Positions 10,041 to 60,650 of a stretch of DNA of 63,889 nt are shown here, in pieces. Position 1 is the stretch's first letter. Every line of letters starts with the position of its first letter. This DNA comes from a virus: positions 1-63,889 of IMG/VR virus record IMGVR_UViG_3300015245_000007; one strand, 5' to 3'. The translations under genes were made by a program, and so were the position numbers. The notes below the pieces were generated by a model, which was not told the DNA's origin, did not search any database, and saw only the letters and a list, made by a program, of their open reading frames with translations.

Positions 10041-10044
10041 TGCC

Positions 10045-12440: not shown

Positions 12441-14354
12441 ATGAACGATACCACCATCAGCTCTGATCATCTCGCGCCCATCACCACGACGCATGCAAAA
12501 CTCGCCGGCGGCAATATGGTGCTCTCAGTCCCGCTCACCGACCTGGTGCTAGGTCACGAGCTAAACCCGAGCATCAATGCGCGGATCGGAGATCCCAACG
12601 AAGGCGTGCCGGAGCTTGCAGCGCTCATCAAGGCGAACAACTGCAAGCTTATTCAAATGCCAATCGCCAAGCCGCTGCCGCGCAACCGCGGTACGATGGC
12701 AACGCAGCAATATGGCGTCTTTGCCGGCAACCGGCGCGCCGGCGCGCTGCGGCTGCTCGCCAACGAGGGCGCGATCGCGAAAGACGAAATGATCGACATC
12801 GTCGTGCGCGATGTCACCGACGCCGAAGCGCTCGAGATTTCACTCGCCGAGAATGTCCATCGCCTGCCGCCGCATCCGGTCGACCAGTTCGAGACCTTCG
12901 TGCGCCTCATCGCAGAGGGCATGAACGTTGAAGAGATCGGCACGCGCTGGTGCATGAAGGAAAAGATGGTTCGCCAGCGCCTGGCGCTCGGCAATCTCTC
13001 GCCCGTGCTCCGCAAATTGCTGCGCGACGACAAGATGAACCTTGGCCAGGCGCAGGCCTTCACGATCGAGCCGGATCACGCGGCGCAAGAGCGCATTTTT
13101 AAATTGTTGAAGGGAAAGTTCGGCGGTCACTTCGGCGAGGGCCAGATCAAATACGAGCTGACCAAGGGCGGCAATCAATCCGCCGCGCTGCTCGAGTTCG
13201 TTGGCCGCGATGGATACATCGCCGCCGGCGGCACCGTGAAGGCCGATCTCTTCGCCGAGGCGCAATATCCCGACGACATTTCGCTTTTGAACAAGCTCGC
13301 CGATGGTCGGATCGAATCCAAGCGCGCCGAGCTGCTCGAGAACGGCTGGTCGTTCGTCGCCGACGAGATGAACAACGAGCCGGGCATCAGCCCGCATTTC
13401 ATAACGCAGATCAAGGTGCGCCCGGTTTACACGCCGCAGCAGGTCGGAACGCTCTCCGAGCTCGAAAAGAAAATGAAGCCGCTCAATTACCACGACGAGC
13501 GCGCGATCAAGCTGCGTACACAGGTCGAGGACATCAAGACGGCCGGCACGCTCGCGGCCTATACCGAAAAGCACAAAAGCGAATCCGGCTGCTGGCTTTC
13601 TTTCAATCGCCATGTCGGCCGCCTGGATATTGTCTATGGCGTGAAGGATCCACGCAAAGAGCCGAAGGCGTCGAAGAGCGCGCGCGCCGGCGCGGGCAGC
13701 TCGCTCTCAAGCGCAAAGCCCAAAGACCCCAATGCGATCAGCCAGAATCTCGAGAAGCAACTCGCCGTGCAGTTCACGGCGGCGATTGCGAAGGTGGTCG
13801 AGGGCGATTCGCAACTCGCACTCTGCGCGCTCATCGCCGGTTTTATGGCCGGCGGCTTTAGCGGCGATCCAGTGCGCGTGCATCACGACGGCCGCGGCAG
13901 CTTCGCCAATCGCGACGACGGCGCCGCCAAGAAGGATTTCAAGTTTTACTTCGCGATGGCGCAGAAAAAGAAACCTGCGGAACGTCTCGCGATCCTGGCG
14001 AAGATCGCCGGCGGCGCGCTCTACCTCGATTGCGCCGACCGGCCTGAATACGACGACGGCGCCACCGAGGCGTTGATCAGGGCTTGCGACGTGAAGCACG
14101 CGCGCGAGGCGATCGCCAGTTCGATCGATTGGAAAATGTATTTCGCCGGCATCAACAAGGCGCAGGCGCTCGAGGCAATCGAGGTTGCGCTTGGCGCCGG
14201 CGAAAAGCAGCGCCTTGCCAACAAATCGAAGCTTGAGGTCGAGGCCGCCGCGATCGCCAAGGTTCCGGCGACCAAATGGCTCCCGCGGGAGTTCCGGACG
14301 GTTCACTATGACGGCCCGGTGGAAAAGGCCAAAAAAGCCGGTTCCAAGAAATAG
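12441..14354 (+). CDS. large ParB/Srx-domain protein (ICE/plasmid-type ParB-like)
   Basis: GNRRAGALRLL, ALEISLAENVHR, HTH EEIGTRWCMKEKMVRQRLAL; 637 aa; no parA partner seen. Confidence 0.7.
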   Translation: MNDTTISSDHLAPITTTHAKLAGGNMVLSVPLTDLVLGHELNPSINARIGDPNEGVPELAALIKANNCKLIQMPIAKPLPRNRGTMATQQYGVFAGNRRAGALRLLANEGAIAKDEMIDIVVRDVTDAEALEISLAENVHRLPPHPVDQFETFVRLIAEGMNVEEIGTRWCMKEKMVRQRLALGNLSPVLRKLLRDDKMNLGQAQAFTIEPDHAAQERIFKLLKGKFGGHFGEGQIKYELTKGGNQSAALLEFVGRDGYIAAGGTVKADLFAEAQYPDDISLLNKLADGRIESKRAELLENGWSFVADEMNNEPGISPHFITQIKVRPVYTPQQVGTLSELEKKMKPLNYHDERAIKLRTQVEDIKTAGTLAAYTEKHKSESGCWLSFNRHVGRLDIVYGVKDPRKEPKASKSARAGAGSSLSSAKPKDPNAISQNLEKQLAVQFTAAIAKVVEGDSQLALCALIAGFMAGGFSGDPVRVHHDGRGSFANRDDGAAKKDFKFYFAMAQKKKPAERLAILAKIAGGALYLDCADRPEYDDGATEALIRACDVKHAREAIASSIDWKMYFAGINKAQALEAIEVALGAGEKQRLANKSKLEVEAAAIAKVPATKWLPREFRTVHYDGPVEKAKKAGSKK

Positions 14355-41234: not shown

Positions 41235-42875
41235 TCACGCTAGACGCCCGTCGAGATTTCCCGCCGCGATCGCCGCCGCCTTCTTTGCCATTTCGGCCTG
41301 TTGCTCGCGCATGAAGTCGAGGTACCCGCGGCCCTTGAAGTTCGGGTTCGCATAGGCCAGCACCAGCGCATCCCAATCGTCGGGCGACGGGATTTTATCG
41401 GCGATCATGTCCTCTTTGGACTGCATGAGAATCAGGCCGCGGCTTGTCGTCTCGTATTTGATAACCGCCGCCTGGCCTGCGGTCTCTTCGTCCTTAAGGT
41501 CGATCTCGCCGGCTACGAACATATCGCGCACGGCCCAATTGATTTCGGCTTTTAGGTTCTTGAAGCGCTGTTTTTCCTTGGCGCCAAAGCACGGCGCGCC
41601 GACATTGACCGGGACCACGACGAACGACGGCAGGCGTTCGGGATCATCCGGCCTCTTGAGCTTATCCTCGCGCTGCATCTCGAGCAGGCGGTCCGTCACG
41701 CCGCCGCCGAGGCCTGCGTCATCGATCTTGACCCGCGTTGCCCCGGTCGCCCGCACCGCGATGACGATCCGGCCGACGACGTGCATCAGGTCGCGCTTGC
41801 GGAATTTGTCTATCTTGCGCGCGACGGCGCCGCGCCTGTGGAAAATCACCGTCGCGTTGCCGTTCTCCGATCGCGCGACGTCAACGCCGAGCTCGTTCGG
41901 ATCGGTCGGCGGCAGCTCTTGCGCGAGCGCGGCCGTGATGAAGCGCAGCGGCACCAGGCCGCCCTCTGCCTGGTCGGGAAATTCGCCCTTGACCTTCGAT
42001 GACCAGAACGGGTGATCTTCGCCCCAATCTTTGCGCTTCTCTTCGACCCAGGTGCGCGACACCAGCAGCGGGCTAAGCCAATCGGGGACCGCCTCGCCAG
42101 TGAAGTTCGGACTTTCGAAAGCATTGATGGCGATGTGATTCCAGCCAGAGCCAGGCAGCGAGACGTGGCGGAATTGGGTATCGGGATCATCCGGATTGCC
42201 GATCGCCAGGATGCGCGCGTCATCGTTCGCGATCAGCGTGTCGGCCGCATTCCATATTGTCTTGTCGACGCCACAGGCCTCATCGAGCAGCACCAGCACA
42301 TAGCGCGCGTGGATGCCCTGAAACGCCGTCGCATCCTTTGGGGCCCGGCCGAAGCCGACCAGCTCGTTGCCGAAGAACCATTCAATCTGGTTGACCTTGC
42401 CCGGAAGGTGGGCGGCCTTGTGAATGCGGTTGATCTCGCGCCAGAGCAGCGCGCGGACCTGGGCATAGGTCGGCGCCGTCGAGACGACGAAAGCCTCACC
42501 AGGCTTGTGACTCGAGAGCCACCACGCCGCGATGCCGGCGGCCACATACGTCTTGCCGACATCGTGGCAGGATGTGACGACGGTGCGGCGGTTATCGCGG
42601 ACGGAAAGACAAATCTGTTTCTGCTTGGACCACAGAACCCCGCCGCAACCCTTCTCGATGAACCCGACGGGATCGGCGGCATAGATGCCGAAGCGGTTGG
42701 CCTCGACGTCTTGCTCAATGCGTTGTCGCGCCTCCATCAGCTCGCGCAGGCGCTTGAGCTTCGCCACCACTTCCGGCGTCGCCGGCAGGCTGTTGACCAG
42801 CTTCTGCCACTGACCGCTCGAGCTGTCGGATGGCTCTGTCAAGATCCTCGACTGTTGGGGTGAGGAATCGGTCAT
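41235..42875 (-). CDS. terL: terminase large subunit
   Basis: Walker A-like SCHDVGKTYVAAG, LVLLDEA Walker B, nuclease half; start uncertain (ATG 42875 overlaps terS by 161 nt; ATG 42737 alternative). Confidence 0.75.
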   Translation of the reverse strand: MTDSSPQQSRILTEPSDSSSGQWQKLVNSLPATPEVVAKLKRLRELMEARQRIEQDVEANRFGIYAADPVGFIEKGCGGVLWSKQKQICLSVRDNRRTVVTSCHDVGKTYVAAGIAAWWLSSHKPGEAFVVSTAPTYAQVRALLWREINRIHKAAHLPGKVNQIEWFFGNELVGFGRAPKDATAFQGIHARYVLVLLDEACGVDKTIWNAADTLIANDDARILAIGNPDDPDTQFRHVSLPGSGWNHIAINAFESPNFTGEAVPDWLSPLLVSRTWVEEKRKDWGEDHPFWSSKVKGEFPDQAEGGLVPLRFITAALAQELPPTDPNELGVDVARSENGNATVIFHRRGAVARKIDKFRKRDLMHVVGRIVIAVRATGATRVKIDDAGLGGGVTDRLLEMQREDKLKRPDDPERLPSFVVVPVNVGAPCFGAKEKQRFKNLKAEINWAVRDMFVAGEIDLKDEETAGQAAVIKYETTSRGLILMQSKEDMIADKIPSPDDWDALVLAYANPNFKGRGYLDFMREQQAEMAKKAAAIAAGNLDGRLA

Positions 42876-43149
42876 GCTGTCCCAGGTAGTGTTTCGACAT
42901 ATGGATGACCATCGTCACCCCGGCGCTATTGGCGAGCTGCGCGTGGCGCCACTGTAAGCGCTTGAGGCTTTGCTTGGCGAAGTTCTCGCCGTTGGTCCAA
43001 GCCTGTTCAAACTCCGGCTCGCTCGCAATGCGGCGCGTGATCGTATGACGCGACACGCCGAAGAACGCCGCGATTTCCTCTTGCGTGCAAAACATGTTGC
43101 ACAGCTTTTCGAAGTTCTCGAGGTTGAGCTCTATTTTGGCCTTCGCCAT
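42715..43149 (-). CDS. terS: terminase small subunit (HTH type)
   Basis: CTQEEIAAFFGVSRHTITRRI HTH; directly upstream of terL; GGAGA SD. Confidence 0.6.
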   Translation of the reverse strand: MAKAKIELNLENFEKLCNMFCTQEEIAAFFGVSRHTITRRIASEPEFEQAWTNGENFAKQSLKRLQWRHAQLANSAGVTMVIHMSKHYLGQHDRFLTPTVEDLDRAIRQLERSVAEAGQQPAGDAGSGGEAQAPARADGGATTH

Positions 43150-43203: not shown

Positions 43204-43232
43204 TCGACAAGGGTCGGCGGTTCACCTAAAAT
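43204..43232 (+). promoter_or_regulatory. strong sigma70-like promoter of the rightward radical-SAM operon
   Basis: TCGACA (43204-43209), 17-bp spacer, TAAAAT (43227-43232); divergent from terS. Confidence 0.55.
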
Positions 43233-43256
43233 CATCGGCGAACCATGGAGCCAATC

Positions 43257-44069
43257 ATGCGCGAGCTTAAGATCAATCCGGACGGTGTGTCCCTCAAAGG
43301 GTGCTCTTACATTTACCCGCCTCAGGGCCAGGCCGGCGAATACTCGGCGCTCGCCGCCAACCCCTATCGCGGCTGCGGCCACGGCTGCGCCTACTGCTAC
43401 GTGCCGCTCATCACCAAGCAACCGCGGCCGGAGTTCGACGCCGGCGCCGTCGTGCGGCCGCATTATCTCGAAAGCCTGCACGCCGACGCCAAGAAATATC
43501 AGCGCGCCGGCATCACCGCACAGGTGATGATTTCCTTCACGTCCGATCCCTACCACCCGGGCAACACCGAGACGACGACGGCCGCGCTCCACATTCTGCG
43601 CAACCATGGCCTGGGTTTCTGCACACTGACCAAGGGCGGCACGCGCGCGCTTCAGGACATCGATTTGTTTCGTCCCGATCGCGACGCCTTCGCCTCGACA
43701 CTCACCACGCTTGACCCGCAGTTCTCGAAAAAGTGGGAGCGCAACGCCGCGTTGCCGGCAGACCGCCTCGACGCACTCCGCACGTTTCACCACAAGGGGA
43801 TTTTTACCTGGGTCTCGCTCGAGCCGACGCTCGACGTCGAGGCCTCGCTCGCGATCGTGGAAGCGACTCACACCTTCGTCGATCTCTACAAGGTGGGGCG
43901 CGCCAACTATGTGAAGGAAATCACGACCGTCACCAATTGGCGCGACTACACCGAGCGCATGATCGCAAAGCTCGGCCGGCTGAAGAAACTGCACTACATC
44001 AAGCATGACCTTCAGCCCTACTTGCCGACCGGCTATCACAATCCGTTGCGCGTCAGGCAGCACCACTGA
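43257..44069 (+). CDS. radical SAM protein, SplB/COG1533 (DNA repair photolyase-like) type
   Basis: NPYRGCGHGCAYCY CX3CX2C cluster; ISFTSDPYHP, TLTKGG, VSLEP blocks; ATG 43257 with GGAG SD (ATG 43245 alternative). Confidence 0.7.
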   Translation: MRELKINPDGVSLKGCSYIYPPQGQAGEYSALAANPYRGCGHGCAYCYVPLITKQPRPEFDAGAVVRPHYLESLHADAKKYQRAGITAQVMISFTSDPYHPGNTETTTAALHILRNHGLGFCTLTKGGTRALQDIDLFRPDRDAFASTLTTLDPQFSKKWERNAALPADRLDALRTFHHKGIFTWVSLEPTLDVEASLAIVEATHTFVDLYKVGRANYVKEITTVTNWRDYTERMIAKLGRLKKLHYIKHDLQPYLPTGYHNPLRVRQHH

Positions 44070-44070
44070 C

Positions 44071-44613
44071 ATGCAAAACGGGACGCTCCGCAAATTCGAC
44101 GGTCGCTTGCTGCTCATGCCCTGCAGCGCGACGAAGCTCGACCACGCCGACCAGCCGCGGCGCCTCTATCTCGGCCCCATGTGGCAGACGCTGCGCGAGC
44201 ACCTCGGCGACATGCCGTGGGAAAACGTCTTCGTGCTCTCCGGCGAATATGGATTCATCAGCTCGCTCAACTTCATTCAGACCTATGACGGCGTGCTGAC
44301 GTCCGCGAAGGCCGATCGCATGATTGCGCGCGGCGTCGAGGGCGGCAACGATCATCACGGCGCGAGCAGCAACGGCGGACCATGCCCGAGCAACGTCCTG
44401 GTCTCGCCAGGCCGCAAGGGTCAACAGCCGTTCGATCGCGTGCTCTGCGCCGGCGCCAACGACTATCGGCGCGTGCTGCAGCACTTCATTGCGGAGTGGA
44501 TTAACGCCGGGCTGATCAAACCCGACGCCAGGATTTTTCACGTGGTCGGCGGCATCGGAGAGCAGCGCCAGCAGCTCGGCCGGTGGCTGCGCAAAGAAGA
44601 GGGGTTTTTCTGA
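44071..44613 (+). CDS. DUF6884-like protein (partner of the radical SAM gene)
   Basis: Starts 2 nt after rSAM stop; LLLMPCSATK..LYLGPMW..VFVLSGEYGF..TYDGVLT pattern recalled for DUF6884. Confidence 0.5.
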   Translation: MQNGTLRKFDGRLLLMPCSATKLDHADQPRRLYLGPMWQTLREHLGDMPWENVFVLSGEYGFISSLNFIQTYDGVLTSAKADRMIARGVEGGNDHHGASSNGGPCPSNVLVSPGRKGQQPFDRVLCAGANDYRRVLQHFIAEWINAGLIKPDARIFHVVGGIGEQRQQLGRWLRKEEGFF

Positions 44614-44777
44614 TGGCCGACGACGTTCAAACGCGCGAGTTGCCGTCCGACGAATGGAAGCGCGGACCGGGCGGCAACTGGTTTCGGTACGCGGCCTGGC
44701 GCGATAGCGCGCCGACGGTCATCGGCTACGGCTGCACCGCGCGCGAGGCGCGCAACGATCTCGAGCGGGGCAAGTGA
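44613..44777 (+). CDS. hypothetical small protein
   Basis: TGATG coupling; 54 aa. Confidence 0.45.
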   Translation: MADDVQTRELPSDEWKRGPGGNWFRYAAWRDSAPTVIGYGCTAREARNDLERGK

Positions 44778-44780
44778 CCC

Positions 44781-45011
44781 ATGTGCGACGACGAAGAGCG
44801 GCCAGGTCCGCATAACTTTGAAGATACGTTCGGCTGCGCCGGCTGCACGTGCACCATGTCGACGACGCATTCTGCATCGATCGATCCGCCAGAGCCGATC
44901 CGCGATCCCTGGTGCCCGGTGCACTCCGGCCGAGATCCCGACGCGGAGCTTGAGCAGAGCCGCGAGGATAACGCCTACTTTGATTCCATCCCTCGAGACG
45001 AAGAGGACTGA
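44781..45011 (+). CDS. hypothetical acidic Cys-containing protein
   Basis: 76 aa ORF, tight spacing. Confidence 0.45.
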   Translation: MCDDEERPGPHNFEDTFGCAGCTCTMSTTHSASIDPPEPIRDPWCPVHSGRDPDAELEQSREDNAYFDSIPRDEED

Positions 45012-45013
45012 CC

Positions 45014-45196
45014 ATGGCACGCACTCCCACGATGCAACGCTGTTTCAACTGCGGCGCCGAACTCGGCGTTTTCATCGCGGTTGACCCGCTCGACCATTGC
45101 GGCGCGCCAGCATGCGCGCGCGAGGCTCGCGATTGCCTGCAAGAGCAACGCGAAGAGGCGCACGCGCGGCTCGATCGCGATCTCGGGTACGACTGA
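45014..45196 (+). CDS. hypothetical zinc-ribbon-like small protein
   Basis: CFNCG...HCGAPAC; 60 aa. Confidence 0.45.
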   Translation: MARTPTMQRCFNCGAELGVFIAVDPLDHCGAPACAREARDCLQEQREEAHARLDRDLGYD

Positions 45197-45426
45197 TGAC
45201 TGACTATCTCGTTTGGAGCAATGAGCATGCGGCTTGGTGGGCGCCCGGCGGCCGCGGCTACACGACGTTGACGCACATGGCCGGTCGCTACTCCAAAGAG
45301 CAGGCGGACGAGATCTGCCGGCAGGCCAATTTTCGTCCAGGCGACATCAACGAGGTGGCGGTCATCGCGCCGTCGCTCAATCATGCGCGCGAGCAATTCC
45401 TCTATCAGGCGAGGCACCCGCAATGA
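45196..45426 (+). CDS. hypothetical protein
   Basis: TGATG coupling; 76 aa. Confidence 0.5.
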   Translation: MTDYLVWSNEHAAWWAPGGRGYTTLTHMAGRYSKEQADEICRQANFRPGDINEVAVIAPSLNHAREQFLYQARHPQ

Positions 45427-45710
45427 AGACACTGCAAAAGCTGGTCGGCATGAAATACCACGGCACCGAACGCATCGTCGCATCAATGGCCGATGGCTAC
45501 ACTGTTGGCCTTATCCGCGAGCCCAAGAACGAGCACGATCGCCACGCAATCCAGGTGTGGGCGGACGAGCGCCTGCTCGGTTATCTCGCCAAGCCCGACA
45601 ATCGAAACCTCGCCATCGCGATGGATTTGCGCGCTGTCACCTCGATGATGGGGACGCTCCGCCCCAACACTCCCGAGCGCTGGCCAATGGTCGAGGTGGA
45701 AGAGCCATGA
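45423..45710 (+). CDS. HIRAN-domain protein
   Basis: VGMKYHG..VGLIREPKNEHDRHAIQVWADERLLGYL matches the HIRAN core; ATGA coupling. Confidence 0.6.
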   Translation: MKTLQKLVGMKYHGTERIVASMADGYTVGLIREPKNEHDRHAIQVWADERLLGYLAKPDNRNLAIAMDLRAVTSMMGTLRPNTPERWPMVEVEEP

Positions 45711-45958
45711 CACCTTTCCCCGATCGCGAGGTTGCGGTGCGCATGACGGGCCGCGAATGGACTGCGCTGCTCGGGCGCATCGTCGGCTCTACGCCGCACC
45801 CGGGTTATCTCAGCGCATTAGGCCGCGAGCAATTCAACATCGCTTCCGGCAAGCTGCAAGAGCAGCTTATGGCGGCAAGCAGTGCGTCACCCGGCGGCGA
45901 CGTCGTGCCGCTATTCGGCAGCAAGAGGAAATCAGGCCATGACGGCGAAAGTCGGTAA
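45707..45958 (+). CDS. hypothetical protein
   Basis: ATGA coupling; 83 aa. Confidence 0.45.
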   Translation: MTPFPDREVAVRMTGREWTALLGRIVGSTPHPGYLSALGREQFNIASGKLQEQLMAASSASPGGDVVPLFGSKRKSGHDGESR

Positions 45959-46358
45959 CTGGATTCGCATGAACGAAAGCGGCGCGATCGGCGAGGTGAT
46001 CGAGGCCTCGGCCAACAGCTGGAAGATCAAATATCAAACGACGCAGCACCCGACGTCGCAGGCGCCGAGGATCAATCACGAAACGACGCAATGGGTCGCG
46101 CTCGGCACCTTCAAGCTCATCGCCAATCCGAACGTGCTCGAGTTCGTTTGTTTCGTCCATCGCGACGACATTGCCGGCATCCCGGACATGGAATTTGTCG
46201 TTCAATGGGACGGCCCGCGCGTGCCGGATTTGATCATCACGCCGGAAGGCGTGCGCCTGGTCGCGCCGGCGGAATATCCCGGCGATCGCTATCTCTACAG
46301 GCCAGCCACGCTGGTCTGCGATCTGCGCGGCGCGGAAAAGTTCGGTGAGCCGTCATGA
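45939..46358 (+). CDS. hypothetical protein
   Basis: ATG 45939 behind AGGAAA; 139 aa. Confidence 0.5.
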   Translation: MTAKVGNWIRMNESGAIGEVIEASANSWKIKYQTTQHPTSQAPRINHETTQWVALGTFKLIANPNVLEFVCFVHRDDIAGIPDMEFVVQWDGPRVPDLIITPEGVRLVAPAEYPGDRYLYRPATLVCDLRGAEKFGEPS

Positions 46359-46693
46359 CGGCCGGCGATCAGCGTTATGTCGCGCGGCGCGGCTCGGCCA
46401 TCGTCCAGGTGGTTTGGGCCGGCGGGATGCGCGATCTCAATCCGCGCCTGGACCTGGCGCGCCATTCGCCCACGGGATTCGGATGGGGCTATGAGGGGAG
46501 CGGGCCGGCGCAACTCGCGCTCGCGATGCTGGCCGATGCCCTCGGCGACGACGAGCGCGCCCGCAAGCTCTATCAACTCTACAAAAGCGAGCGCATCGCC
46601 AAATTGAACGGCCAGGTCGGGTTCCTTATCGCGGCCTCGACCGTCCGCCTCGATGCCGCGATCATCGAGTCTCGAATGGCCGGCAAGGATTGA
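46355..46693 (+). CDS. DUF6166-like protein
   Basis: HSPTGFGWGYEGSGPAQLALAML signature; ATGA coupling. Confidence 0.55.
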   Translation: MTAGDQRYVARRGSAIVQVVWAGGMRDLNPRLDLARHSPTGFGWGYEGSGPAQLALAMLADALGDDERARKLYQLYKSERIAKLNGQVGFLIAASTVRLDAAIIESRMAGKD

Positions 46694-46748
46694 CCCTCGG
46701 CCGCCACAGCCCGCCACAGCGATTATTTCACGACCGGAGCACCGTCCT

Positions 46749-47135
46749 ATGTCCGACGAAACAGCGCGCCCCACGGCCACCAAAACCAGGCAATTCCCCG
46801 TCGACGTTTTGACGCCAGGCGCCAAGCGCCGGCGCCTCGAGCTCACGATGGCGCCGGTACCGGCCTATGCGGAGCTCGCCGCCAAGGTCGCGCCGCTCAT
46901 TGGCGGCTCAATCGAGCACGTGCGCATATGGGACAAGCACCAGGAAATTTACGCCTCGATGTTCGTCGACGAGCAATCGATTTCCAAGGGTCTGCCGCGC
47001 AACGAGGCCGCGACCAAGATTTACCGCGCGAACATGATCGCGCACTCGAAAGACCCCCGCGCCAAGCTCGACCCCGAGCGCCTGCCCGCCATCTATGGCG
47101 CAGCCGTCGTTTTCAAATGCAATGTCTGGCGTTGA
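46749..47135 (+). CDS. hypothetical protein
   Basis: ATG 46749 with GGAG upstream; 128 aa. Confidence 0.5.
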   Translation: MSDETARPTATKTRQFPVDVLTPGAKRRRLELTMAPVPAYAELAAKVAPLIGGSIEHVRIWDKHQEIYASMFVDEQSISKGLPRNEAATKIYRANMIAHSKDPRAKLDPERLPAIYGAAVVFKCNVWR

Positions 47136-47184
47136 CGTTTCCGCAATCGCCGAATATCTTCGGTACATCACAGAGAGGTGCACC

Positions 47185-47580
47185 ATGGGACGCAGGCCGA
47201 GCCTGACAGACGAACAGAAAGATCTGATCGCGGAATTGCGCGAGGGCCGCGGGTGGTCCTACGCGCGGATCGCCATCAAGCTCAAGATCGCCGAAGGTTC
47301 GGTCTCTTGGTATTGCTTGAAGCAAGGCATCGAGAAGCCAGGCCGCAAAATTCCGGTCCTGCGGCAACCGCAAACAAAGCCCTTCACCCGGCACGGCCGA
47401 ACGGTGCGGCCATTCTCGCCGGAAGAGGACGCGAAGATGCTCGAGCTCTCCGCCGAGGGTCTCAAGCCAGCGGCGATCGCGCGCGCGCTCGGCAATCGCC
47501 GACCGAACAGCATCACCGGCCGGCTCTACACGCTGGCGCGACACCAGGACCGCGCGGATGCATCCCAGGGAATAGGATGA
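47185..47580 (+). CDS. DNA-binding protein: Hin-like HTH + GcrA-like segment
   Basis: GWSYARIAIKLKIAEGSV HTH; FSPEEDAKMLELSAEGLKPAAIARALGNRRPNSITGRLYTL resembles the GcrA N-domain; AGAGAGG SD. Confidence 0.5.
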   Translation: MGRRPSLTDEQKDLIAELREGRGWSYARIAIKLKIAEGSVSWYCLKQGIEKPGRKIPVLRQPQTKPFTRHGRTVRPFSPEEDAKMLELSAEGLKPAAIARALGNRRPNSITGRLYTLARHQDRADASQGIG

Positions 47581-47777
47581 CCACCGCGGGCGGACCATAT
47601 CTGCAGTACCGCATTCGCGCCCTCGAAAATGAGGCGCGCGAGCGCGAGGTTCACGCCAATGCATTAGAGGCCGACGCTCTTGCCGAACGACAAGGCGCGC
47701 AGCGATGCCGAAAAACGGCAGAGTATCTCAAAAGCTACGCGGTGCCCGCGGGGAGGATGACCGATGCCAAACAATAA
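47577..47777 (+). CDS. hypothetical coiled-coil protein
   Basis: ATGA coupling; 66 aa. Confidence 0.45.
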   Translation: MTTAGGPYLQYRIRALENEAREREVHANALEADALAERQGAQRCRKTAEYLKSYAVPAGRMTDAKQ

Positions 47778-47964
47778 GACCGCCAGACACCGCCGCTACG
47801 AACGCGCGATCGTCGCAATGTGGAAAGCGCACCAGGCGCTCGGCGAGATCATGGAGCTTCAAGCACCGGGCGACGACAGCCGAACTGTGCTGCGAAACCA
47901 GATCGGCGAATATGCCGGCTATCTCGAAACCGCGACGTGGTGGCGCGACAAGGAATCCGCTTGA
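47764..47964 (+). CDS. hypothetical protein
   Basis: 66 aa, 14-nt overlap upstream. Confidence 0.45.
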   Translation: MPNNKTARHRRYERAIVAMWKAHQALGEIMELQAPGDDSRTVLRNQIGEYAGYLETATWWRDKESA

Positions 47965-48350
47965 TGGCCGCGTTCGGATGCAAGGTTCGTTTCGTCCCGC
48001 CCTACATCGCCGGCAGGAAGGGCGGTACTATTCGTGCGCACCGCAAAGACGGCCGAGACCACGCGCAACTCGGCGGCGAGATACACCTCTACACCGGCTT
48101 GCGCACGCCGCGCGCCTATCTCTTCGGCCGAGAGACATGTGTCGATTACTTGCCGATACGTCTCGCCTTTAAACGCCGGCCTCTTGTGGCCTGGCCAAAG
48201 CGCACCATCATCGCGCGCGCGGATCTCGATCGCTTCGCCGTGTTCGACGGCTTTGAGAACTTCGACGACATGGAAGCCTTTTGGCAGGCGACGCACCGCG
48301 TTGAAGAGTTCAACGGCGGTTGGATTTTGTGGAAGGATAAGCCGCTATGA
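47964..48350 (+). CDS. hypothetical protein, tentatively ASCH/PUA-like
   Basis: TGATG coupling; GGTIRAH..GGEIHLYTGLRT..CVDYLPIRL loosely ASCH-like. Confidence 0.35.
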   Translation: MAAFGCKVRFVPPYIAGRKGGTIRAHRKDGRDHAQLGGEIHLYTGLRTPRAYLFGRETCVDYLPIRLAFKRRPLVAWPKRTIIARADLDRFAVFDGFENFDDMEAFWQATHRVEEFNGGWILWKDKPL

Positions 48351-48586
48351 AAATCGAACTCGAGCCGACCGGCACATTCGAGACCGTGAGCCAGGCGAGC
48401 GGTCGCGTGCAATGCCGCATCTGGCGCGGCACATACAACGGCGCGCGGGTCATCGCCTATATCCCGTGCGTCGGTCTCCACAAAGACGCTTCGCCGGAAG
48501 AGCAGGCGCAATGGGAGAAAGAGCTGCGCCTGGTGAAGGCCGATCGGGAGCTCGTCTCGTTCGATATGAGAATGGTGCTCGACTGA
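48347..48586 (+). CDS. hypothetical protein
   Basis: ATGA coupling; 79 aa. Confidence 0.5.
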   Translation: MKIELEPTGTFETVSQASGRVQCRIWRGTYNGARVIAYIPCVGLHKDASPEEQAQWEKELRLVKADRELVSFDMRMVLD

Positions 48587-48807
48587 TGACCGGCCTCTTG
48601 CTCTGGCTCATCATTGGCGAGCTCATCACCATCAGCGTGACCCGCGTGGTCAACTTCGCCGACGTCGCGCGCTTCACCAACCAGAAGGCGCTCGCCATCT
48701 ACGGCCGCCGCATGCCGCCGTTCGTGCCGTATATTTGGGCCGCTCTGATCGTTGTGCTATGGCCGGTTTTCTTGATTATGGCGGCGGTCTATATACTTCG
48801 GAAGTGA
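48586..48807 (+). CDS. two-TM small membrane protein
   Basis: TGATG coupling; LLLWLIIGELITISV and IWAALIVVLWPVFLIMAAVYIL. Confidence 0.5.
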   Translation: MTGLLLWLIIGELITISVTRVVNFADVARFTNQKALAIYGRRMPPFVPYIWAALIVVLWPVFLIMAAVYILRK

Positions 48808-48811
48808 CGCC

Positions 48812-49060
48812 ATGTCGGACAACAGCCGCATTCGCTTGGACGATCTATTCGAAGGTCTCGACGACGAAGAGATTGTCGGCGTCGCGCTGATCGCTAAGAG
48901 CGGCAAGGTGCGCGTTTGGGCTTCCGACCAAATCGTTCAAGACGCAAGCTATGCCTGGCTCGGGCGCCAGATCGAGGCGTGCGGCAAGGTCGCCGAGGGC
49001 ATGGGCCAAGAGGAAACGCCGCCCAACTTCGGCGAGGCCACGCCGAGAACGAGGCACTGA
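48812..49060 (+). CDS. hypothetical protein
   Basis: 82 aa ORF. Confidence 0.45.
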   Translation: MSDNSRIRLDDLFEGLDDEEIVGVALIAKSGKVRVWASDQIVQDASYAWLGRQIEACGKVAEGMGQEETPPNFGEATPRTRH

Positions 49061-49233
49061 TGGCGATCGCCGCCGACAACTTCAATCGCTTGCGCCAGCT
49101 CGTCATCGATTGGCGCAACGCGATGGACGATCGCATAGGCTCGCGCAAGGAAGAGCTCGAAACTGATCAAGAGCGCGAAGAGTACCTCGCGATCATCGCC
49201 GAGCTTGAAAACTTCTGGGAGCGCCGGCGATGA
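49060..49233 (+). CDS. hypothetical small protein
   Basis: TGATG coupling; 57 aa. Confidence 0.4.
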   Translation: MAIAADNFNRLRQLVIDWRNAMDDRIGSRKEELETDQEREEYLAIIAELENFWERRR

Positions 49234-49406
49234 ACTGGACACAAGACGATCAAGACGAAGCGGTTCGCGCGCGCCGAGAGATCGCCGCAGAATATCAAAG
49301 GGCTCGACGACGCGGGCCGCGCTGGGCCGCCTGGCTCCTCGATAAATGCGTTAGCGTCGCCCTATGGGCCGAGCGCGAAGGCAAGCGACTACTGCGGGGC
49401 GGATGA
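49230..49406 (+). CDS. hypothetical small protein
   Basis: ATGA coupling both ends; 58 aa (below the ORF-track cutoff, read directly from sequence). Confidence 0.4.
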   Translation: MNWTQDDQDEAVRARREIAAEYQRARRRGPRWAAWLLDKCVSVALWAEREGKRLLRGG

Positions 49407-49558
49407 AGATGATCACGCGCGAGGACATACCGGCGATTTGGCACAAGCTGCCGGCGGAGCTCAAGCGGCGATGGTGGGGCGAAACAGACTACGGCCGACT
49501 CGAGCCGTCGTCCGAGCTGCTCGATGCGATCGCGGCGGCCGCGGGACTCGCCACATGA
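49403..49558 (+). CDS. hypothetical small protein
   Basis: ATGA coupling; 51 aa. Confidence 0.4.
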   Translation: MKMITREDIPAIWHKLPAELKRRWWGETDYGRLEPSSELLDAIAAAAGLAT

Positions 49559-49842
49559 GACGAGAGAACCGCGGCGGCCGGATGATCCACGGTTATCAAT
49601 ATCACCTCAACCAAAAGCTCGCGGCGTCGCACGTCGAGAACGAACGCGGCTGGCGAATCCCGAACACCGTCGAGGAAGGCTTTGAAGCCCTGAACCTCTC
49701 GCTGTGGTGGCTGCATTATCGCGTGCTCTGGTTTCACCTCGGCGTGCTGTCCTCGACCGCGCGCGATCGCGAAGAGGCCTGGCATAACGCGCGGATTTAT
49801 CTCAATCGAGCGCGGCAGTGTCCTCGGCCGCGGCTTCCATGA
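49555..49842 (+). CDS. hypothetical protein
   Basis: ATGA coupling; 95 aa; last gene before a hairpin. Confidence 0.45.
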   Translation: MRRENRGGRMIHGYQYHLNQKLAASHVENERGWRIPNTVEEGFEALNLSLWWLHYRVLWFHLGVLSSTARDREEAWHNARIYLNRARQCPRPRLP

Positions 49843-49848
49843 AACGGC

Positions 49849-49883
49849 AAACCCCGCGGCCCTTCGTCGGCGCCGCGGGGTTT
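49849..49883 (+). terminator. intrinsic-terminator-like hairpin
   Basis: AAACCCCGCGGC (49849-49860) / GCCGCGGGGTTT (49872-49883), perfect 12-bp stem, 11-nt loop. Confidence 0.45.
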
Positions 49884-49964
49884 CCAGGCTTTTGGGTCCT
49901 ATAGGAACGCCCCGGTGCTGATCAGGCAGGCGACGTCCGCAACCCATTTCACTGGGGGGTGTTT

Positions 49965-50213
49965 ATGAAACGCAAGATAGACCAGCGCACGCCGGCGTCA
50001 AGCCGCATTGCGTGCGAAGTGCCGTTCTGCCGGCACGGCACCAGGCGCTATCCGGCCGGCTCGAGGTGGGTCTGTGCTGATCATTGGCGGCTGACGAGCA
50101 AGAGCTGGCGCCGGCGGCTGCGGCTCTTTCGCAAGCGGCGTCGATATGATCTCGCCGGCATCATGTGGGACCGCTTGCGCGACCAGGCTATCGAGCGCGC
50201 CGGCGGCCTCTGA
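49965..50213 (+). CDS. hypothetical basic Cys/His-containing protein
   Basis: ATG 49965 behind GGGGGG; CEVPFCRH..CADH. Confidence 0.45.
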   Translation: MKRKIDQRTPASSRIACEVPFCRHGTRRYPAGSRWVCADHWRLTSKSWRRRLRLFRKRRRYDLAGIMWDRLRDQAIERAGGL

Positions 50214-50222
50214 AACGAAGAA

Positions 50223-50245
50223 CGCCGCCCCGATCGGAGGCGGCG
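50223..50245 (-). terminator. hairpin between convergent genes (bidirectional terminator candidate)
   Basis: CGCCGCC / GGCGGCG stems around a CCGATCGG core; on the minus strand followed by TTCTTCGTTTC. Confidence 0.5.
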
Positions 50246-50294
50246 CCTTGGCCCGCGGGCCTTCATTGTCGGCGCGATGCCGACGTGGAACGTT

Positions 50295-50648
50295 TTAGGG
50301 CGACGGGGTCGCGGCGGCGACCGGAGCGACTACCGGGGGAATCAATGCGCCGAGAGCGTCAGCCTGGGCATTGATATTCTTCACCGCACCGGCGAGGGCT
50401 TCGTCGTCTTCGGCTTCATGCGCGTCGACAATCGCCTGTGCGGATGTCTTGATACTGGCGGCAACAGCGCTGACCTGGGTGGTGAGGTTCGCGATCGCGG
50501 CGGCGATTGCGTCGAGTTCGGCTTTCGTGGCCATGGAGTGCTCCAATCGTCTGAGGGTTGAGAGGACGGCTTGTGACGTCGTGTGATCATAGTTCGATTG
50601 CGGGGCCGCCTGTTGCTGCCGCGCTATGACGTGATCCCACCACCCCAT
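50295..50648 (-). CDS. hypothetical Ala-rich helical protein
   Basis: ATG 50648 with AGAGGA SD; internal ATG 50534 also has GGAG. Confidence 0.5.
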   Translation of the reverse strand: MGWWDHVIARQQQAAPQSNYDHTTSQAVLSTLRRLEHSMATKAELDAIAAAIANLTTQVSAVAASIKTSAQAIVDAHEAEDDEALAGAVKNINAQADALGALIPPVVAPVAAATPSP

Positions 50649-50699
50649 TGTTCGTGTCCTCTGGTTGCGGCGAGACCATAGGCTGCCGACGATTTCCGG

Positions 50700-51359
50700 T
50701 CAAGCCGCCGCGGCCTTCACTTTGTAGGGGAGCCCGCGAAACACGACACCGATATAGGCGACGGCCATTCCGGTCTTGCCGTGCGCCTCCCAGCGCTCGA
50801 GCACCTCGCAGCGCATGCGCTCGGCCAGGCCGGCGATCGTGCGATTCGTGAGCTGGTCGCGCCAGCGGTTGAGCCCGGTGAAGCGCGGATTGAGCTGCGC
50901 GAGCTCTTGCACCGCGCCTGGCACGTTGTTCGCCTTGTACGACAGACCAGCGCCATCGGTGAACGCGAATCCGATCAGCTCGGCCGGCGCGACCGGCCGG
51001 CGGTCGGCAATGATGACCGCTTGCTCCCAGGGGATCCCGTAGGCGTCGAGATCAAACACGTTATAGGCGCGAAGGTCGATCGACCGGAGCACGCGGCGAT
51101 TGTCCGCGACATACATCAGCCGGCGGCGATCGCGAATGTACTTCTGATCGCAGCCGCAATAGGCCTCGGCCCTCGACCAGGCGCCCGCGAACATCTGGCC
51201 GCTGCCGGCGAACGCATCGAACACGTGCCGCGGCTTCGGCATCGCCTCGAGCACCTGATTGCGGATTTGGAGCTTGGCCTTTTCCGCCGCCGGATTGTTG
51301 TCGACCTTCTTTGCGCTATCGCGGCCGACGCCGAGCTTGTTGATGCGCTTGCGCTTCAC
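50700..51359 (-). CDS. SAM-dependent methyltransferase-like protein (Trm1/TcmP-like motifs)
   Basis: DAFAGSG (motif I) and FDLDAYG (DxDPxG-like); GTG 51359 in GTGA overlap. Confidence 0.5.
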   Translation of the reverse strand: MKRKRINKLGVGRDSAKKVDNNPAAEKAKLQIRNQVLEAMPKPRHVFDAFAGSGQMFAGAWSRAEAYCGCDQKYIRDRRRLMYVADNRRVLRSIDLRAYNVFDLDAYGIPWEQAVIIADRRPVAPAELIGFAFTDGAGLSYKANNVPGAVQELAQLNPRFTGLNRWRDQLTNRTIAGLAERMRCEVLERWEAHGKTGMAVAYIGVVFRGLPYKVKAAAA

Positions 51360-51590: not shown

Positions 51591-51875
51591 TCAACTCCCC
51601 TCCATGATGATTTTCGGTTTCTCGCCATAGCGCGGCGCAAGCAATGCAGGCGCCAGCGGAGCGCGGAGCGTGGTGCCATAGGCGCCGATCCACGGTTGGT
51701 CCGGATTGCCCTCGGTGCACTCGATGCCCTTGAAGCCAAATTCAACGCCGCAGTCGCGGCACCAGACGCGCACGACGAACATAAACTCGACGCGATCGGT
51801 CATCGGCACCAGCAAGCGCGCCACCTGGTTCTGCACCTGAAACCGTTCGTGCTTGCAGCTATTCGGTATCGACAT
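51591..51875 (-). CDS. hypothetical Cys-containing protein
   Basis: 94 aa; C7, CRDC, C53. Confidence 0.45.
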   Translation of the reverse strand: MSIPNSCKHERFQVQNQVARLLVPMTDRVEFMFVVRVWCRDCGVEFGFKGIECTEGNPDQPWIGAYGTTLRAPLAPALLAPRYGEKPKIIMEGS

Positions 51876-52440
51876 TGATCGTTCCTAGCTCCACTTCGAC
51901 GCCGGGAAATTCCGCCATCAGCACCTCGAGGCGGTTGAGCGCCGCGGCCTGGTGCTGCAGGGGACCGCGCACGGCGATCCAGAACACGTCATCGACCGAC
52001 GACGTCGCGACGCGCTTCACCTCGAGCGGATCCCCGTCATCACGCATGGACTCGAGCTCGTCCGCATCAAAGCCGGCGGCGCCGAGCAGCTCGTCATCAC
52101 CGATGGAGTCGACCACCTGGCGCAGCGTGGCGGCGTTCCAGTGCGAGTCCTCGGGCAGCTTGTTGAGCGCCAGGCCGAGCGCCGAGTACAGCGCCGGCGT
52201 CAGGCCCTCGACGACGATGCACATTTCGTTTGTTCGGCCGAGACGCAGCAGCGCCTGCAGCGTCGCGTGGCCGCCGATGATCTGGCCGTCGGGCTGTACG
52301 ATGATCCAGTCGACATATCCGAATGTATCTATTGACTCGGCAATGTTCGCGATCTGCGCGTCGCCGTGCTCACGCGCATTGCGCGGATCATTCTTGAGCG
52401 CGGCGAGATCGAACGCGCGATTAGTAACAGTTGCGGCCAT
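51859..52440 (-). CDS. ParB-like nuclease (ParB N-terminal/Srx) domain protein
   Basis: LKNDPRNAREH..IVQPDGQIIGGHATLQAL; 193 aa. Confidence 0.6.
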   Translation of the reverse strand: MAATVTNRAFDLAALKNDPRNAREHGDAQIANIAESIDTFGYVDWIIVQPDGQIIGGHATLQALLRLGRTNEMCIVVEGLTPALYSALGLALNKLPEDSHWNAATLRQVVDSIGDDELLGAAGFDADELESMRDDGDPLEVKRVATSSVDDVFWIAVRGPLQHQAAALNRLEVLMAEFPGVEVELGTINVDTE

Positions 52441-52648
52441 CGGCTTTCTTTCTCGCGAAGTGATCATGCAGGACAATCATGCCGCCGGCATAGACGCCAG
52501 GTCCGGTACGCAACACCGCCGCCATCTCATACTTTGCCCATGCATGCAGAATGCCGGTGGGCGATTCCCAGACGATCCACTCTTTGCGCGATTGGTCTTT
52601 GCGCAGCATGAACCCGAAGGTGCTCGGGTGCCCGACGTTGCCGCTCAT
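52421..52648 (-). CDS. hypothetical protein
   Basis: 75 aa; ATGA coupling upstream. Confidence 0.4.
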   Translation of the reverse strand: MSGNVGHPSTFGFMLRKDQSRKEWIVWESPTGILHAWAKYEMAAVLRTGPGVYAGGMIVLHDHFARKKADGRNCY

Positions 52649-57543: not shown

Positions 57544-58068
57544 CATAACCTCGCACGCGCGAGCCGGCCCCAAAGCGGCCGTTCGGTTATAGGCTCTGAT
57601 GCATTGGAGATTGTAGTCTCTGGCACTCGGCGCGGAAAGAGCGAGCGCCATAGCGCGACGCGACTTTACGCGCGGTGAGAGTTAGCAAGGTGGAGAGGCT
57701 GGGTTAAAGATACCGCGCGGGGCAGTTAAGCTCAGATGTTTGAGATACTGTAGGCTGCCTGGCGTCAGCAAGAGGCGCCTAAGAGCGCTGGCGCGCGGCG
57801 CCTTTGCTTCCGCGCGTTCTACTGCTGCGCGAGGCTGATTTCTCGATTGCGCTTATTTTGATCGAAAGAGAAATCACAAGCGCGTGAGGCCGCGTTCGCG
57901 GTGCGTTCTCCGATCGCCATTTTCTCTTACGGCTGCAATAGCTCCTCGCGCGCCAGCGCGTCGCGATCGGCCCGGGATTTGCCCGACATTCACCGGCGCC
58001 AGGTGGTCAAAAGGGGTTGACAGGTTTCCGGCCCCGACCGGGAACGGAGAGGTTTTATATCCTGCCGG

Positions 58069-58165
58069 TTGCGAAAACGAACCTATTGCAATCTTTTCAA
58101 TATTCAGGCACAAACAGATCACGGACGGCGCTGGCCGGTTCCGGACCCAAAGGGGAAAGCCTCAG
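58069..58165 (+). promoter_or_regulatory. conserved promoter/5' leader element, copy A (upstream of radC-like gene)
   Basis: TTGCGA..TTGCAA hairpin, then GGACGGCGCTGGCCGGTTCC hairpin (58123-58142), AAAGGGGAAAG SD, ATG 58166; near-identical core in copies B and C. Confidence 0.6.
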
Positions 58166-58840
58166 ATGACCCTCTCTCCCGCCCAGAAAGCCGCCGCCAC
58201 CCGCCGCGCCCGCAAGGCCGCCATGATCGCCCCCGCCCGGGCGCCCGGCCTCGCCGACGCCGGCCAGCTCGGCGACCTGGCGTTGCTGGCGACTTTCATT
58301 GGCCAGCAGGCCGACGTCTTGATCCGCGAATTTGGCACCCTCGCCGCGACCGTCGCAGCCCCGCTCGAGCGGATCGCCGAGCTGACGGGCACGACCACCG
58401 CGCGGACCGTGAAGGCGCTCGCCATGGCCGCCATCAGCGTTACCCGGGGCGAGCTCGCCGGCAAATGCTGCCTCTCCAGTTTCGCGGCCGTGACGGACTA
58501 CCTCCGGGCCTCCATGCGGACCGAAGGAACCGAGCAATTTCGCGTTCTCTTCCTGAACAAGCGCAACGAGCTGGTCGCCGACGAAGTGATGGGCGTCGGC
58601 ACGATCGACCACGTTCCGGTTTACCCGCGCGAGGTTGCCAAGCGCGCCCTGGAGCTCGGCGCCAGCGCCATCTTTCTTTCGCACAATCACCCGTCGGGCG
58701 ACCCGACGCCGTCGAGCGCCGACGTCGAAATGACCAAAGAGCTGGTCAAGGTGATGGGCGTTTTCGGGATCGCGATTTACGACCACATCATTGTCGGCCG
58801 GAACGACATCGCCTCGCTCAAGGGTCTGCGGATGATGTGA
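58166..58840 (+). CDS. radC: RadC-like JAB/MPN-domain protein
   Basis: FRVLFLNKRNELV..HVPVYPREV..AIFLSHNHPSGDPTPSSADVEMT (JAMM HxHPSG); N-terminal SPAQKAAATRRARKAA motif. Confidence 0.8.
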   Translation: MTLSPAQKAAATRRARKAAMIAPARAPGLADAGQLGDLALLATFIGQQADVLIREFGTLAATVAAPLERIAELTGTTTARTVKALAMAAISVTRGELAGKCCLSSFAAVTDYLRASMRTEGTEQFRVLFLNKRNELVADEVMGVGTIDHVPVYPREVAKRALELGASAIFLSHNHPSGDPTPSSADVEMTKELVKVMGVFGIAIYDHIIVGRNDIASLKGLRMM

Positions 58841-59705: not shown

Positions 59706-59911
59706 GAGCGCCCACGATTTCCGAAACCGGCGCGCGCGCGTATCGCGCCGGCATACCGGCATCCGGAAACCCGTTCGCGATCGGCTCGCAGGCGCGCACG
59801 CTCTGGGCGCGCGGCTGGCGCGAAGCGAAAACCGAGGCGGCGATCGCCGCGGCCGGTCGCGCGCTTGACACTTCGCTCGCCGCCACCCGCCGCGCCGTGC
59901 GGAGGCGGTGA
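59702..59911 (+). CDS. Rmf/CrpP-fold-like small protein
   Basis: AYRAGIPASGNPFAIGSQARTLWARGWREAK resembles the Rmf/CrpP pattern; ATGA coupling. Confidence 0.45.
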   Translation: MRAPTISETGARAYRAGIPASGNPFAIGSQARTLWARGWREAKTEAAIAAAGRALDTSLAATRRAVRRR

Positions 59912-59912
59912 C

Positions 59913-60650
59913 GTGGTCCAGCCCGCTACATTTCTGCGTCGCCTCGAGATCGATTCGCGAGCGCGTCGCAAGCAGCCGACACTGATATCGCTTTTCAGCG
60001 GTTGCGGCGGTGCTGCGCTCGGCATCCGCCAGGCCGGATTTGAGGTGCGCGTATTCGTCGAGTTTGACGAGACGTGCTGCGAGACTCTCGCGGCCAATTG
60101 GATCAAGCCGCCGCGCGGCGCGCCGAAGTCAGAGCGGCGGCCGTGGCACCAGCGCCGCGACCCGGTGATAATGCGCGCGGACCTAACCAAGCTCTCGACT
60201 GCCGAGATACTCGCCGCGGCCGAGCTCGCGATCGGCGAGGCCGATTGCCTCGAGGGCGGGTTTCCGTGCCAGGGCTTTTCGACGTCGGGCAAGCGCATGA
60301 TCGATGATCCGCGCAATCGCCTTTACCGCGAATGCGTGCGCGTGATCGGCGAGGCGCTTCCGCGGTTCTTCGTTCTGGAAAACGTGCCAGGCCTGATCAG
60401 CATGGGCGGCGGCACTGTCATGTGCCAAATCTGCGAGGACCTGGCCGAGGTCGGCTATGACGTGCAGTGGGATATTCTCAACGCCGCGGACTTCGGCGTG
60501 CCGCAGAATCGCAAGCGCGTTTTCATTCTCGGCCACCGCGTCGACCACATGCACATTGCCGGCAAGCGCGTCCAGCTCTTCATGGGCGCAGCGCCAGGCG
60601 CGATTTATCACCCCGAGTTTTTCCTCAAACGGTTGGAGAAGATCCGATGA
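59913..60650 (+). CDS. DNA (cytosine-5) methyltransferase, N-terminal catalytic half only (motifs I-VIII)
   Basis: LFSGCGG (I), GGFPCQGFS (IV), FVLENVPGL (VI), QNRKRVFILG (VIII); ORF ends 35 aa later with no TRD or motifs IX/X; GTG 59913 with GGAGG SD. Confidence 0.7.
   Translation: MVQPATFLRRLEIDSRARRKQPTLISLFSGCGGAALGIRQAGFEVRVFVEFDETCCETLAANWIKPPRGAPKSERRPWHQRRDPVIMRADLTKLSTAEILAAAELAIGEADCLEGGFPCQGFSTSGKRMIDDPRNRLYRECVRVIGEALPRFFVLENVPGLISMGGGTVMCQICEDLAEVGYDVQWDILNAADFGVPQNRKRVFILGHRVDHMHIAGKRVQLFMGAAPGAIYHPEFFLKRLEKIR

Follow-up and report, generated by a model that had tools for sequence, protein, structure and literature searches.

A conserved phage radical-SAM gene, its recurrent ParB-like and methyltransferase neighbours, and an adjacent DUF6884 gene in an IMG/VR viral genome

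The window analysed here is the whole 63,889-nucleotide (nt) stretch of IMG/VR virus record IMGVR_UViG_3300015245_000007, and the region under study, positions 43,204 to 44,613, carries a promoter followed by two genes: gene 1, which encodes a radical S-adenosylmethionine (SAM) enzyme, and gene 2, which encodes a protein of the DUF6884 family. An earlier note, made from the letters of the sequence, had proposed that the two form a functional pair of early genes. We find that the radical-SAM gene recurs in phages beside two other genes, encoding a ParB_N-like protein and a small methyltransferase, and that a conserved phage radical-SAM gene with an acquired DUF6884 passenger is the better description of the region.

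Promoter, gene 1 and gene 2

The promoter is a sigma-70-like TCGACA-17-TAAAAT element on the + strand (43204-43232). It matches at 10 of 12 positions, a score that no other site on either strand of the 63.9-kb window reaches, which bears out its description as a near-consensus promoter, the best in the window and divergent from the terminase small subunit gene (terS). That gene lies on the - strand at 42715-43149 (phrog_309, E 1.5e-7) and is followed on the divergent side by the terminase large subunit gene (TerL, 41235-42875, - strand; phrog_2, E 3.8e-31) and then by the portal. Upstream of radical-SAM homologues elsewhere the promoter is not conserved (9/134).

Gene 1 runs on the + strand from 43245 or 43257 to 44069 (274 amino acids, aa, from 43245). 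The true start is probably the ATG at 43257, because a Shine-Dalgarno GGAG read from the sequence (43247-43250, + strand) lies 6 nt before it and the N-termini of the homologues align there. A transcript beginning about 7 nt past the -10 element would carry this GGAG and then the ATG at 43257 as a coherent leader, which points to the same start. The stop codon of gene 1 (TGA, 44067-44069) and the ATG of gene 2 at 44071 meet in the junction TGAcATG, with a single base between them, so that the spacing is indeed as tight as had been claimed. Gene 2 (44071-44613, + strand, 180 aa) encodes a stand-alone DUF6884 protein and is probably co-transcribed with gene 1 from the gene 1 promoter, with translational coupling.

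The earlier note had identified gene 1 as a radical-SAM protein with a CX3CX2C cluster and had called for hidden Markov model (HMM) searches of both proteins; with Pfam and NCBIfam these confirm Radical_SAM for gene 1 and DUF6884 for gene 2. Gene 1 bears the cluster motif NPYRGCGHGCAYCY (CX3CX2C), residues C44, C48 and C51 are invariant across all its homologues, and Pfam Radical_SAM (PF04055) matches it above threshold (E 6e-12, 46.4 bits against a cut-off of 29.5). It also matches phrog_13321, a PHROG of unknown function (E 2e-24), and has no match in PADLOC. The NCBIfam models of the COG1533 type score far under their cut-offs (PA0069, 55.9 against 360 bits; Rv2578c, 40.5 against 430; radical SAM mobile pair B, 41.2 against 410); the proposed assignment to the COG1533 group therefore holds at the level of the superfamily that also includes spore photoproduct lyase (SPL), but not at the level of these families. 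With the mobile pair A/B (TIGR04471/TIGR04470) gene 1 has in common a COG1533-like radical-SAM enzyme on mobile elements with a fixed partner; it differs in that its partner is not a second radical-SAM protein.

The AlphaFold2 model of gene 1 (mean predicted local distance difference test, pLDDT, 87.7) is a radical-SAM partial TIM barrel. It has 66 matches in the PDB at E<=1e-3, the 50 listed are all radical-SAM enzymes, and the highest query-normalised TM-scores, 0.61-0.63, are to SPL. Gene 1 is thus like SplB, PA0069 and Rv2578c in its barrel, in its NPYxGCxHxCxYCY-type cluster motif and in having its best TM-scores to SPL. Unlike them, it is only about 270 aa long, is phage-borne, scores 40-56 bits where the NCBIfam models require 360-430, and has no SPL match at the level of sequence. 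It also differs from SplB in that its extra cysteines are not conserved across its family. These cysteines, C20 and C126, are invariant in the soil clade only and are replaced in distant homologues. Because they are not kept family-wide, neither an RlmN/Cfr-like two-cysteine mechanism with a methyl-Cys nor an SPL-like Cys donor is retained as a general feature of gene 1.

Homologues of gene 1 number more than 3000, and among the best 120 identity to it does not fall under 70%. Identity is 64-73% between Bradyrhizobium, Variovorax and Ramlibacter isolates, Ca. Chloroploca and Acidobacteriota-binned contigs (loci L010-L069), a span that takes in isolates of Alphaproteobacteria and Betaproteobacteria and contigs assigned to Acidobacteriota and Chloroflexota. 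Identity of this height is unusual for an accessory gene of a phage; the adjoining methyltransferase of these loci reaches only 45-55%. At about 73-75% identity, homologues are found behind RecT in a Mesorhizobium prophage, behind ERF and YqaJ in a Bradyrhizobium metagenome-assembled genome and behind a Cro-like regulator in a temperate phage. Another, in a Bradyrhizobium prophage, is likewise divergent from terS, but the gene that follows it encodes a protein of 63 aa.

In a Planctomycetaceae-binned contig (L061:2294-4171) an intein-like insertion of about 350 aa sits precisely inside CX3CX2C (GCGHGCAYC|LTPDT...ISHN|CYVP), an arrangement comparable to that of the NCBIfam 'intein-containing Rv2578c' family. 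Three Acidobacteria loci have a conserved protein, about 500 aa long, in frame with the radical-SAM gene and no stop between, upstream of it in L022 and L032 and downstream of it in L018, and in L011 a primase/DUF3631-like region is in frame with it. These long frames of the Acidobacteria loci are ambiguous, and may be fusions or, the DNA being GC-rich, frames that simply run on.

Gene 2 matches Pfam DUF6884 (PF21818) at 34.8 bits against a gathering cut-off of 30. The four patterns on which the earlier assignment to this family was based are all present, namely CSATK (18-22), LYLGP, LSGEYGF (LSGEYG at 56-61) and YDGVL, and CxxxK plus LSxxxG is the motif by which the Pfam curators define the family (PMC11701544). 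Invariant among 20 relatives are C18, K22, S57 and a C-terminal GGIGEQRxQL motif. Gene 2 also matches phrog_5935 and the PADLOC candidate-system component PDC-M57A (E 1.4e-7), and weakly PADLOC DpdC (E 0.022); its close homologues number just 22. The structure model (pLDDT 89.9) matches KS14 gp8 in BFVD (E 9e-15, TM 0.70), as well as the DUF6884 proteins of phages Kronos, Mendokysei and ChaoS9, and one viral protein named YaaA is among the fold matches. Against the PDB, the fold search returns nothing under E 0.1 and the profile search of PDB sequences no relative with a solved structure. The YaaA Pfam model does not match gene 2.

To our knowledge DpdC is the sole characterised relative of gene 2. 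This protein, which has a DUF6884 domain, works directly on a base in double-stranded DNA (PMC10164549; bioRxiv 10.1101/2025.02.24.639861), a conversion that is independent of its partners (PMC10164549), and base flipping has been predicted by the Pfam curators for another member, YfjM (PMC11701544). Gene 2 is like DpdC, YfjM and YaaA in scoring above the DUF6884 threshold, in its CxxxK and LSxxxG motifs and in having the fold of viral DUF6884 proteins. From DpdC it differs in being a 180-aa stand-alone protein that matches the 319-position DpdC profile weakly, and in that genes for DpdA, DpdB and preQ0 are not found among the larger non-structural open reading frames (ORFs) of the window. It differs from YaaA in having neither a YaaA Pfam match nor a PDB fold match. 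A Pfam scan of the window's 20 larger non-structural ORFs, with the small ORFs not all scanned, finds no TGT or Que domains, and gene 2 as the DpdC of a 7-deazaguanine pathway was rejected on the larger ORFs scanned. Given the activity of DpdC on double-stranded DNA, the base flipping predicted for YfjM and the lack of DpdA and preQ0 genes among these ORFs, gene 2 is, by analogy, best read as an enzyme of mobile elements that processes DNA bases on its own.

The resemblance of gene 1 to SPL invites an explanation in terms of repair of injected DNA, in which gene 1 would be a light-independent SPL-like lyase that undoes ultraviolet or desiccation lesions in virion DNA directly upon injection and gene 2, a relative of YfjM and YaaA, would recognise damaged or abasic sites, the two having early genome repair as a common theme but forming no obligate pair. 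Besides the TM-scores, it can draw on the COG1533-type families annotated 'DNA repair photolyase', to whose superfamily gene 1 belongs, on the position of gene 1 at the head of its unit behind a strong host-type promoter, on the homologues in early recombination operons, and on YfjM, for which an interaction with DNA lesions is reported (PMC11701544). It is the main rival of the modification reading favoured below, but we regard it as unlikely, since gene 1 has no detectable sequence similarity to SPL, C126, the candidate for the SPL hydrogen-donor Cys, is lost in distant homologues, and, as described below, neither the company that the radical-SAM gene keeps nor that of DUF6884 fits it well.

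Radical-SAM and DUF6884 genes in related loci

Radical-SAM homologues were represented by 80 genomic and 80 viral loci and homologues of gene 2 by 14 viral loci; the six-frame translations of all of them were scanned with HMMs for the two families. Loci centred on a radical-SAM gene were examined over +/-6 kb and those anchored on the methyltransferase over +/-8 kb. Apart from the window itself, a DUF6884 gene is found in none of 167 radical-SAM loci, and relaxing the threshold to E 10 brings up no further genuine match, not even a borderline one. None of the 80 methyltransferase-anchored loci has a DUF6884 gene either. Conversely, there is no radical-SAM gene at any of about 45 other DUF6884 places (42 fetched loci, some of them duplicated, and three plasmid regions), 23 metagenome loci of gene 2 relatives included. 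Among GenBank phages, homologues of gene 1 and of gene 2 occur in disjoint sets of phages; the window has no nucleotide match to cultured phages. The adjacency of the two genes is thus unique to this window among more than 290 related places. The neighbourhood comparison that the earlier note had suggested finds no co-occurrence of the two families beyond chance, and genes 1 and 2 as a conserved pair or system are for that reason not supported. Had the pair been conserved, it would have been a new early-infection system.

The same comparison bears on a phage-specific two-enzyme pathway, in which the radical-SAM enzyme would make a modified base for the DUF6884 enzyme to convert. The 1-nt spacing and the common promoter speak for it, as do the weak PADLOC match to DpdC and the precedent of DpdC itself as a second-step enzyme on DNA, which converts preQ0-DNA to ADG-DNA (PMC10164549). 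We consider such a pathway very improbable: the two genes adjoin in this window alone, no DpdA/TGT or preQ0 genes are found among the large ORFs, and the relatives of gene 2 live in unrelated settings (lysogeny modules or accessory regions of plasmids, for instance). That DUF6884 is never beside the radical-SAM gene elsewhere also tells against the repair of injected DNA by the two proteins.

Relatives of gene 2 at 54-63% identity occur in three settings: in a lysogeny module with a repressor and a serine recombinase, behind an unrelated protein of 511-547 aa, and near another ParB. In Burkholderia phage KS14 the homologue adjoins an invertase and a repressor. DUF6884 is also present on 69 plasmids, among DndB, antirestriction, ArdC-like and toxin-antitoxin genes. 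On the Burkholderia contaminans plasmid NZ_CP090645.1 (L268) the DUF6884 gene divergently adjoins DndB (ParB-like), with a nucleoside 2-deoxyribosyltransferase and an antirestriction gene near; this setting hints at a place for DUF6884 in DNA-modification or anti-restriction neighbourhoods on plasmids. Clustering of neighbours across the DUF6884 contexts yields no gene in common, and the other candidate partners of gene 2 (DUF5417, the 511-547-aa upstream proteins and DndB) were rejected, none of them being common to different contexts. One neighbour is shared by gene 2 and a relative, and at a single locus only: a 112-aa protein at 46355-46693 of the window (+ strand) has a 49%-identical homologue directly 3' of the DUF6884 gene in a viral contig (L170:6462-6830).

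ParB-like and methyltransferase neighbours of the radical-SAM gene

Clustering of the proteins encoded around the radical-SAM gene gives one recurrent non-overlapping cluster, which consists of a methyltransferase-like protein and a ParB_N-like protein, each of about 200 aa. In the window, the methyltransferase is at 50700-51359 and the ParB_N-like protein at 51859-52476 (phrog_620, E 3.5e-31), both on the - strand. The methyltransferase, which the earlier note had mentioned in passing, thus turns out to be a real recurrent partner of the radical-SAM gene, with its ParB-like neighbour. It lies beside the radical-SAM gene in 67/168 loci, and 64/168 have both genes within 6 kb. When the loci are instead anchored on the methyltransferase, the ParB-like gene adjoins it, immediately upstream, in 78 of 80, and a radical-SAM gene is found no more than 8 kb away in 44/80, always 3' of the methyltransferase. 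Loci with all three genes are present in 8 of the 17 radical-SAM clusters defined at 60% identity.

The three genes come in two arrangements. The first architecture, that of the large soil clade, places the radical-SAM gene on the opposite strand (convergent), between the methyltransferase and terS. In the second, ParB-like, methyltransferase and radical-SAM genes are contiguous and co-directional in this order; it is found in Dulem virus 36, in Akkermansia-, Bacteroidota-, Cloacimonadota- and Kiritimatiellia-binned contigs and in several viral contigs, with identities that come to only 33-40% in the radical-SAM protein and to about 20% in the methyltransferase. Just downstream of the block, the co-directional lineages have packaging genes of differing terminase and portal families, which speaks against plain inherited synteny. 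Recurrent linkage of this kind, beside packaging genes, suits a role in modification better than one in repair of injected DNA.

The window methyltransferase has no significant Pfam, NCBIfam or PHROG match. Its family comprises more than 1100 homologues, all of them 'hypothetical proteins' of about 200 aa, with a conserved motif I, VLDxFAGxG, and motif IV, DxDAYGSP; the window protein reads VFDAFAGSG ... FDLDAYGIP, with a Trm1-like motif IV. The best PDB match of the family profile is Trm1 (2dul, E 0.011), over motif IV (DLDPFGSP), and NCBIfam gives weak TRM1 matches only among the relatives. The evidence that this protein is an amino-methyltransferase, read from these motifs, is weak but consistent. 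TcmP-like motifs had been proposed for it; NCBIfam gives no TcmP match at E<=1, and we have dropped this identity in favour of the weak Trm1-like motif IV.

The ParB-like protein also matches the N-terminal 135 positions of phrog_498 ('DNA methyltransferase', 633 positions; E 1.4e-28), and is therefore a free-standing version of the ParB domain of the phage ParB-methyltransferase fusions. Such fusions are well known, and a position near packaging genes is typical of them. The arrangement here is like that of the phrog_498 fusions in that the window ParB-like protein is homologous to their N-terminal domain and that in the anchored loci the methyltransferase follows directly downstream. It is unlike them in having two separate genes, in that the methyltransferase is small and Trm1-like and not of the N6_N4 type, and in that about half of the methyltransferase loci add a radical-SAM gene. 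We found nothing relevant in the literature on this trio, on COG1533 in phages or on N2-methylguanine in phage DNA. The three genes form a loosely linked module that is undescribed in the libraries and literature searched.

In the window the radical-SAM gene is separated from the methyltransferase and ParB-like genes by a variable region of mostly small + strand ORFs (44614-50650). These ORFs have almost no homologues in the matching region of 248 related loci, and their PHROG matches are to families of unknown function and to one D5-like regulator. Together with gene 2, which opens it, this 6.6-kb block makes up a hypervariable accessory slot, by which the methyltransferase and ParB-like genes have been pushed away from the radical-SAM gene. 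Elsewhere, the window encodes a DnaB-like helicase (2323-4332), RecT (9871-11238), a second, long ParB (12441-14354, 637 aa, phrog_7783), RadC (57884-58840) and a C5-cytosine DNA methyltransferase (59865-60650). No integrase is found among the window ORFs scanned.

Roles proposed for the two genes

We favour, with some confidence, a reading in which genes 1 and 2 are adjacent by an accident of insertion, gene 1 acts on DNA together with the ParB-like protein and the methyltransferase, and gene 2 works independently. Gene 1 would be a phage-specific, strongly conserved SPL/COG1533-like radical-SAM enzyme with phage DNA as its substrate. That substrate is suggested by the linkage to ParB and methyltransferase genes, with their matches to phrog_498 and to Trm1 motif IV, by the position beside packaging genes or in recombination operons (homologues with RecT, ERF and YqaJ), by the intein, by the SPL-like superfamily and by the conservation across phyla. 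The general idea of the earlier note, that both proteins are DNA-directed enzymes, fits this evidence; their pairing does not.

The more specific proposal that gene 1 takes part in post-replicative DNA modification, together with the split ParB-methyltransferase, has in our estimate a little under an even chance of being right. The ParB-like protein and the Trm1-like methyltransferase would be a split version of the phage ParB-DNA-methyltransferase fusions. The former would carry the methyltransferase to DNA, the methyltransferase would methylate a base, and, shortly after entry or else before packaging, the radical-SAM enzyme would apply its 5'-deoxyadenosyl radical to the same DNA, either as a further conversion of the methylated base or in parallel. 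In this phage the gene for that enzyme lies inverted, under its own sigma-70-like promoter by terS and a 6.6-kb block away from the methyltransferase and ParB-like genes. Gene 2, with a putative YaaA/DpdC-type fold and a Cys-Lys active-site motif, would most likely flip out and process a damaged or modified DNA base. Genes of its type move independently among temperate phages and plasmids, and here one appears to have landed as the first gene of the accessory block.

Several observations weigh against this reading. The TM-scores to SPL barely exceed those to SuiB, viperin and LipA, and a profile search of the PDB with gene 1 gives no sequence-level match and no SPL at E<=1. We know of no close relative of gene 1 whose substrate or product has been established. 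About 60% of the radical-SAM loci have no ParB-like and methyltransferase genes inside 6 kb, so the radical-SAM enzyme is not strictly dependent on them; this figure overestimates their true absence, since the pair lies 6-7 kb off in the window and in L200 and L202, and one radical-SAM locus lacks it even within 10 kb. A Rosetta-stone search finds no fusion of the methyltransferase with the ParB-like or the radical-SAM protein among the top 120 methyltransferase homologues. The 1-nt spacing, finally, predicts that genes 1 and 2 are co-expressed, which leaves room for a cooperation specific to this phage.

Some of these points would equally follow if the link were one of position only, with three independent accessory genes sharing a hot spot on the packaging side and the radical-SAM enzyme acting alone, its substrate being a nucleotide, a protein or a defence signal. 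The pair is absent from the vicinity in most radical-SAM loci, the gene also occurs in early operons, it is on the opposite strand in the soil clade, fusions are missing, and viperin and maturases of ribosomally synthesized and post-translationally modified peptides score similarly in the fold search. Yet the contiguous, overlapping order of ParB-like, methyltransferase and radical-SAM genes is kept in seven deep lineages at 20-40% identity and beside differing packaging families, and without exception the radical-SAM gene is 3' of the methyltransferase; we think it quite unlikely that position is all that links them.

The modification proposal can be taken one step further, to a three-component phage DNA hypermodification by the ParB_N-like protein, the Trm1-like mini-methyltransferase and the SPL-like radical-SAM enzyme, in which methylation of an exocyclic amine would be followed by radical conversion. 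In wybutosine synthesis Trm5 acts first and TYW1 then follows, and the phage enzymes may obey an analogous logic; a further step could in this phage come from the DUF6884 enzyme. We offer this chemistry as speculation that is somewhat unlikely to be correct as it stands.

DUF6884 emerges from these comparisons as a solo mobile-element gene that deserves study by itself. Homologues of the methyltransferase (more than 1100) and of the radical-SAM enzyme (more than 3000) come from soil and gut sequence data, and the radical-SAM enzyme, the ParB-like protein and a methyltransferase family with no model in Pfam, NCBIfam or PHROGs together provide a testable lead to a new phage DNA modification or repair chemistry.

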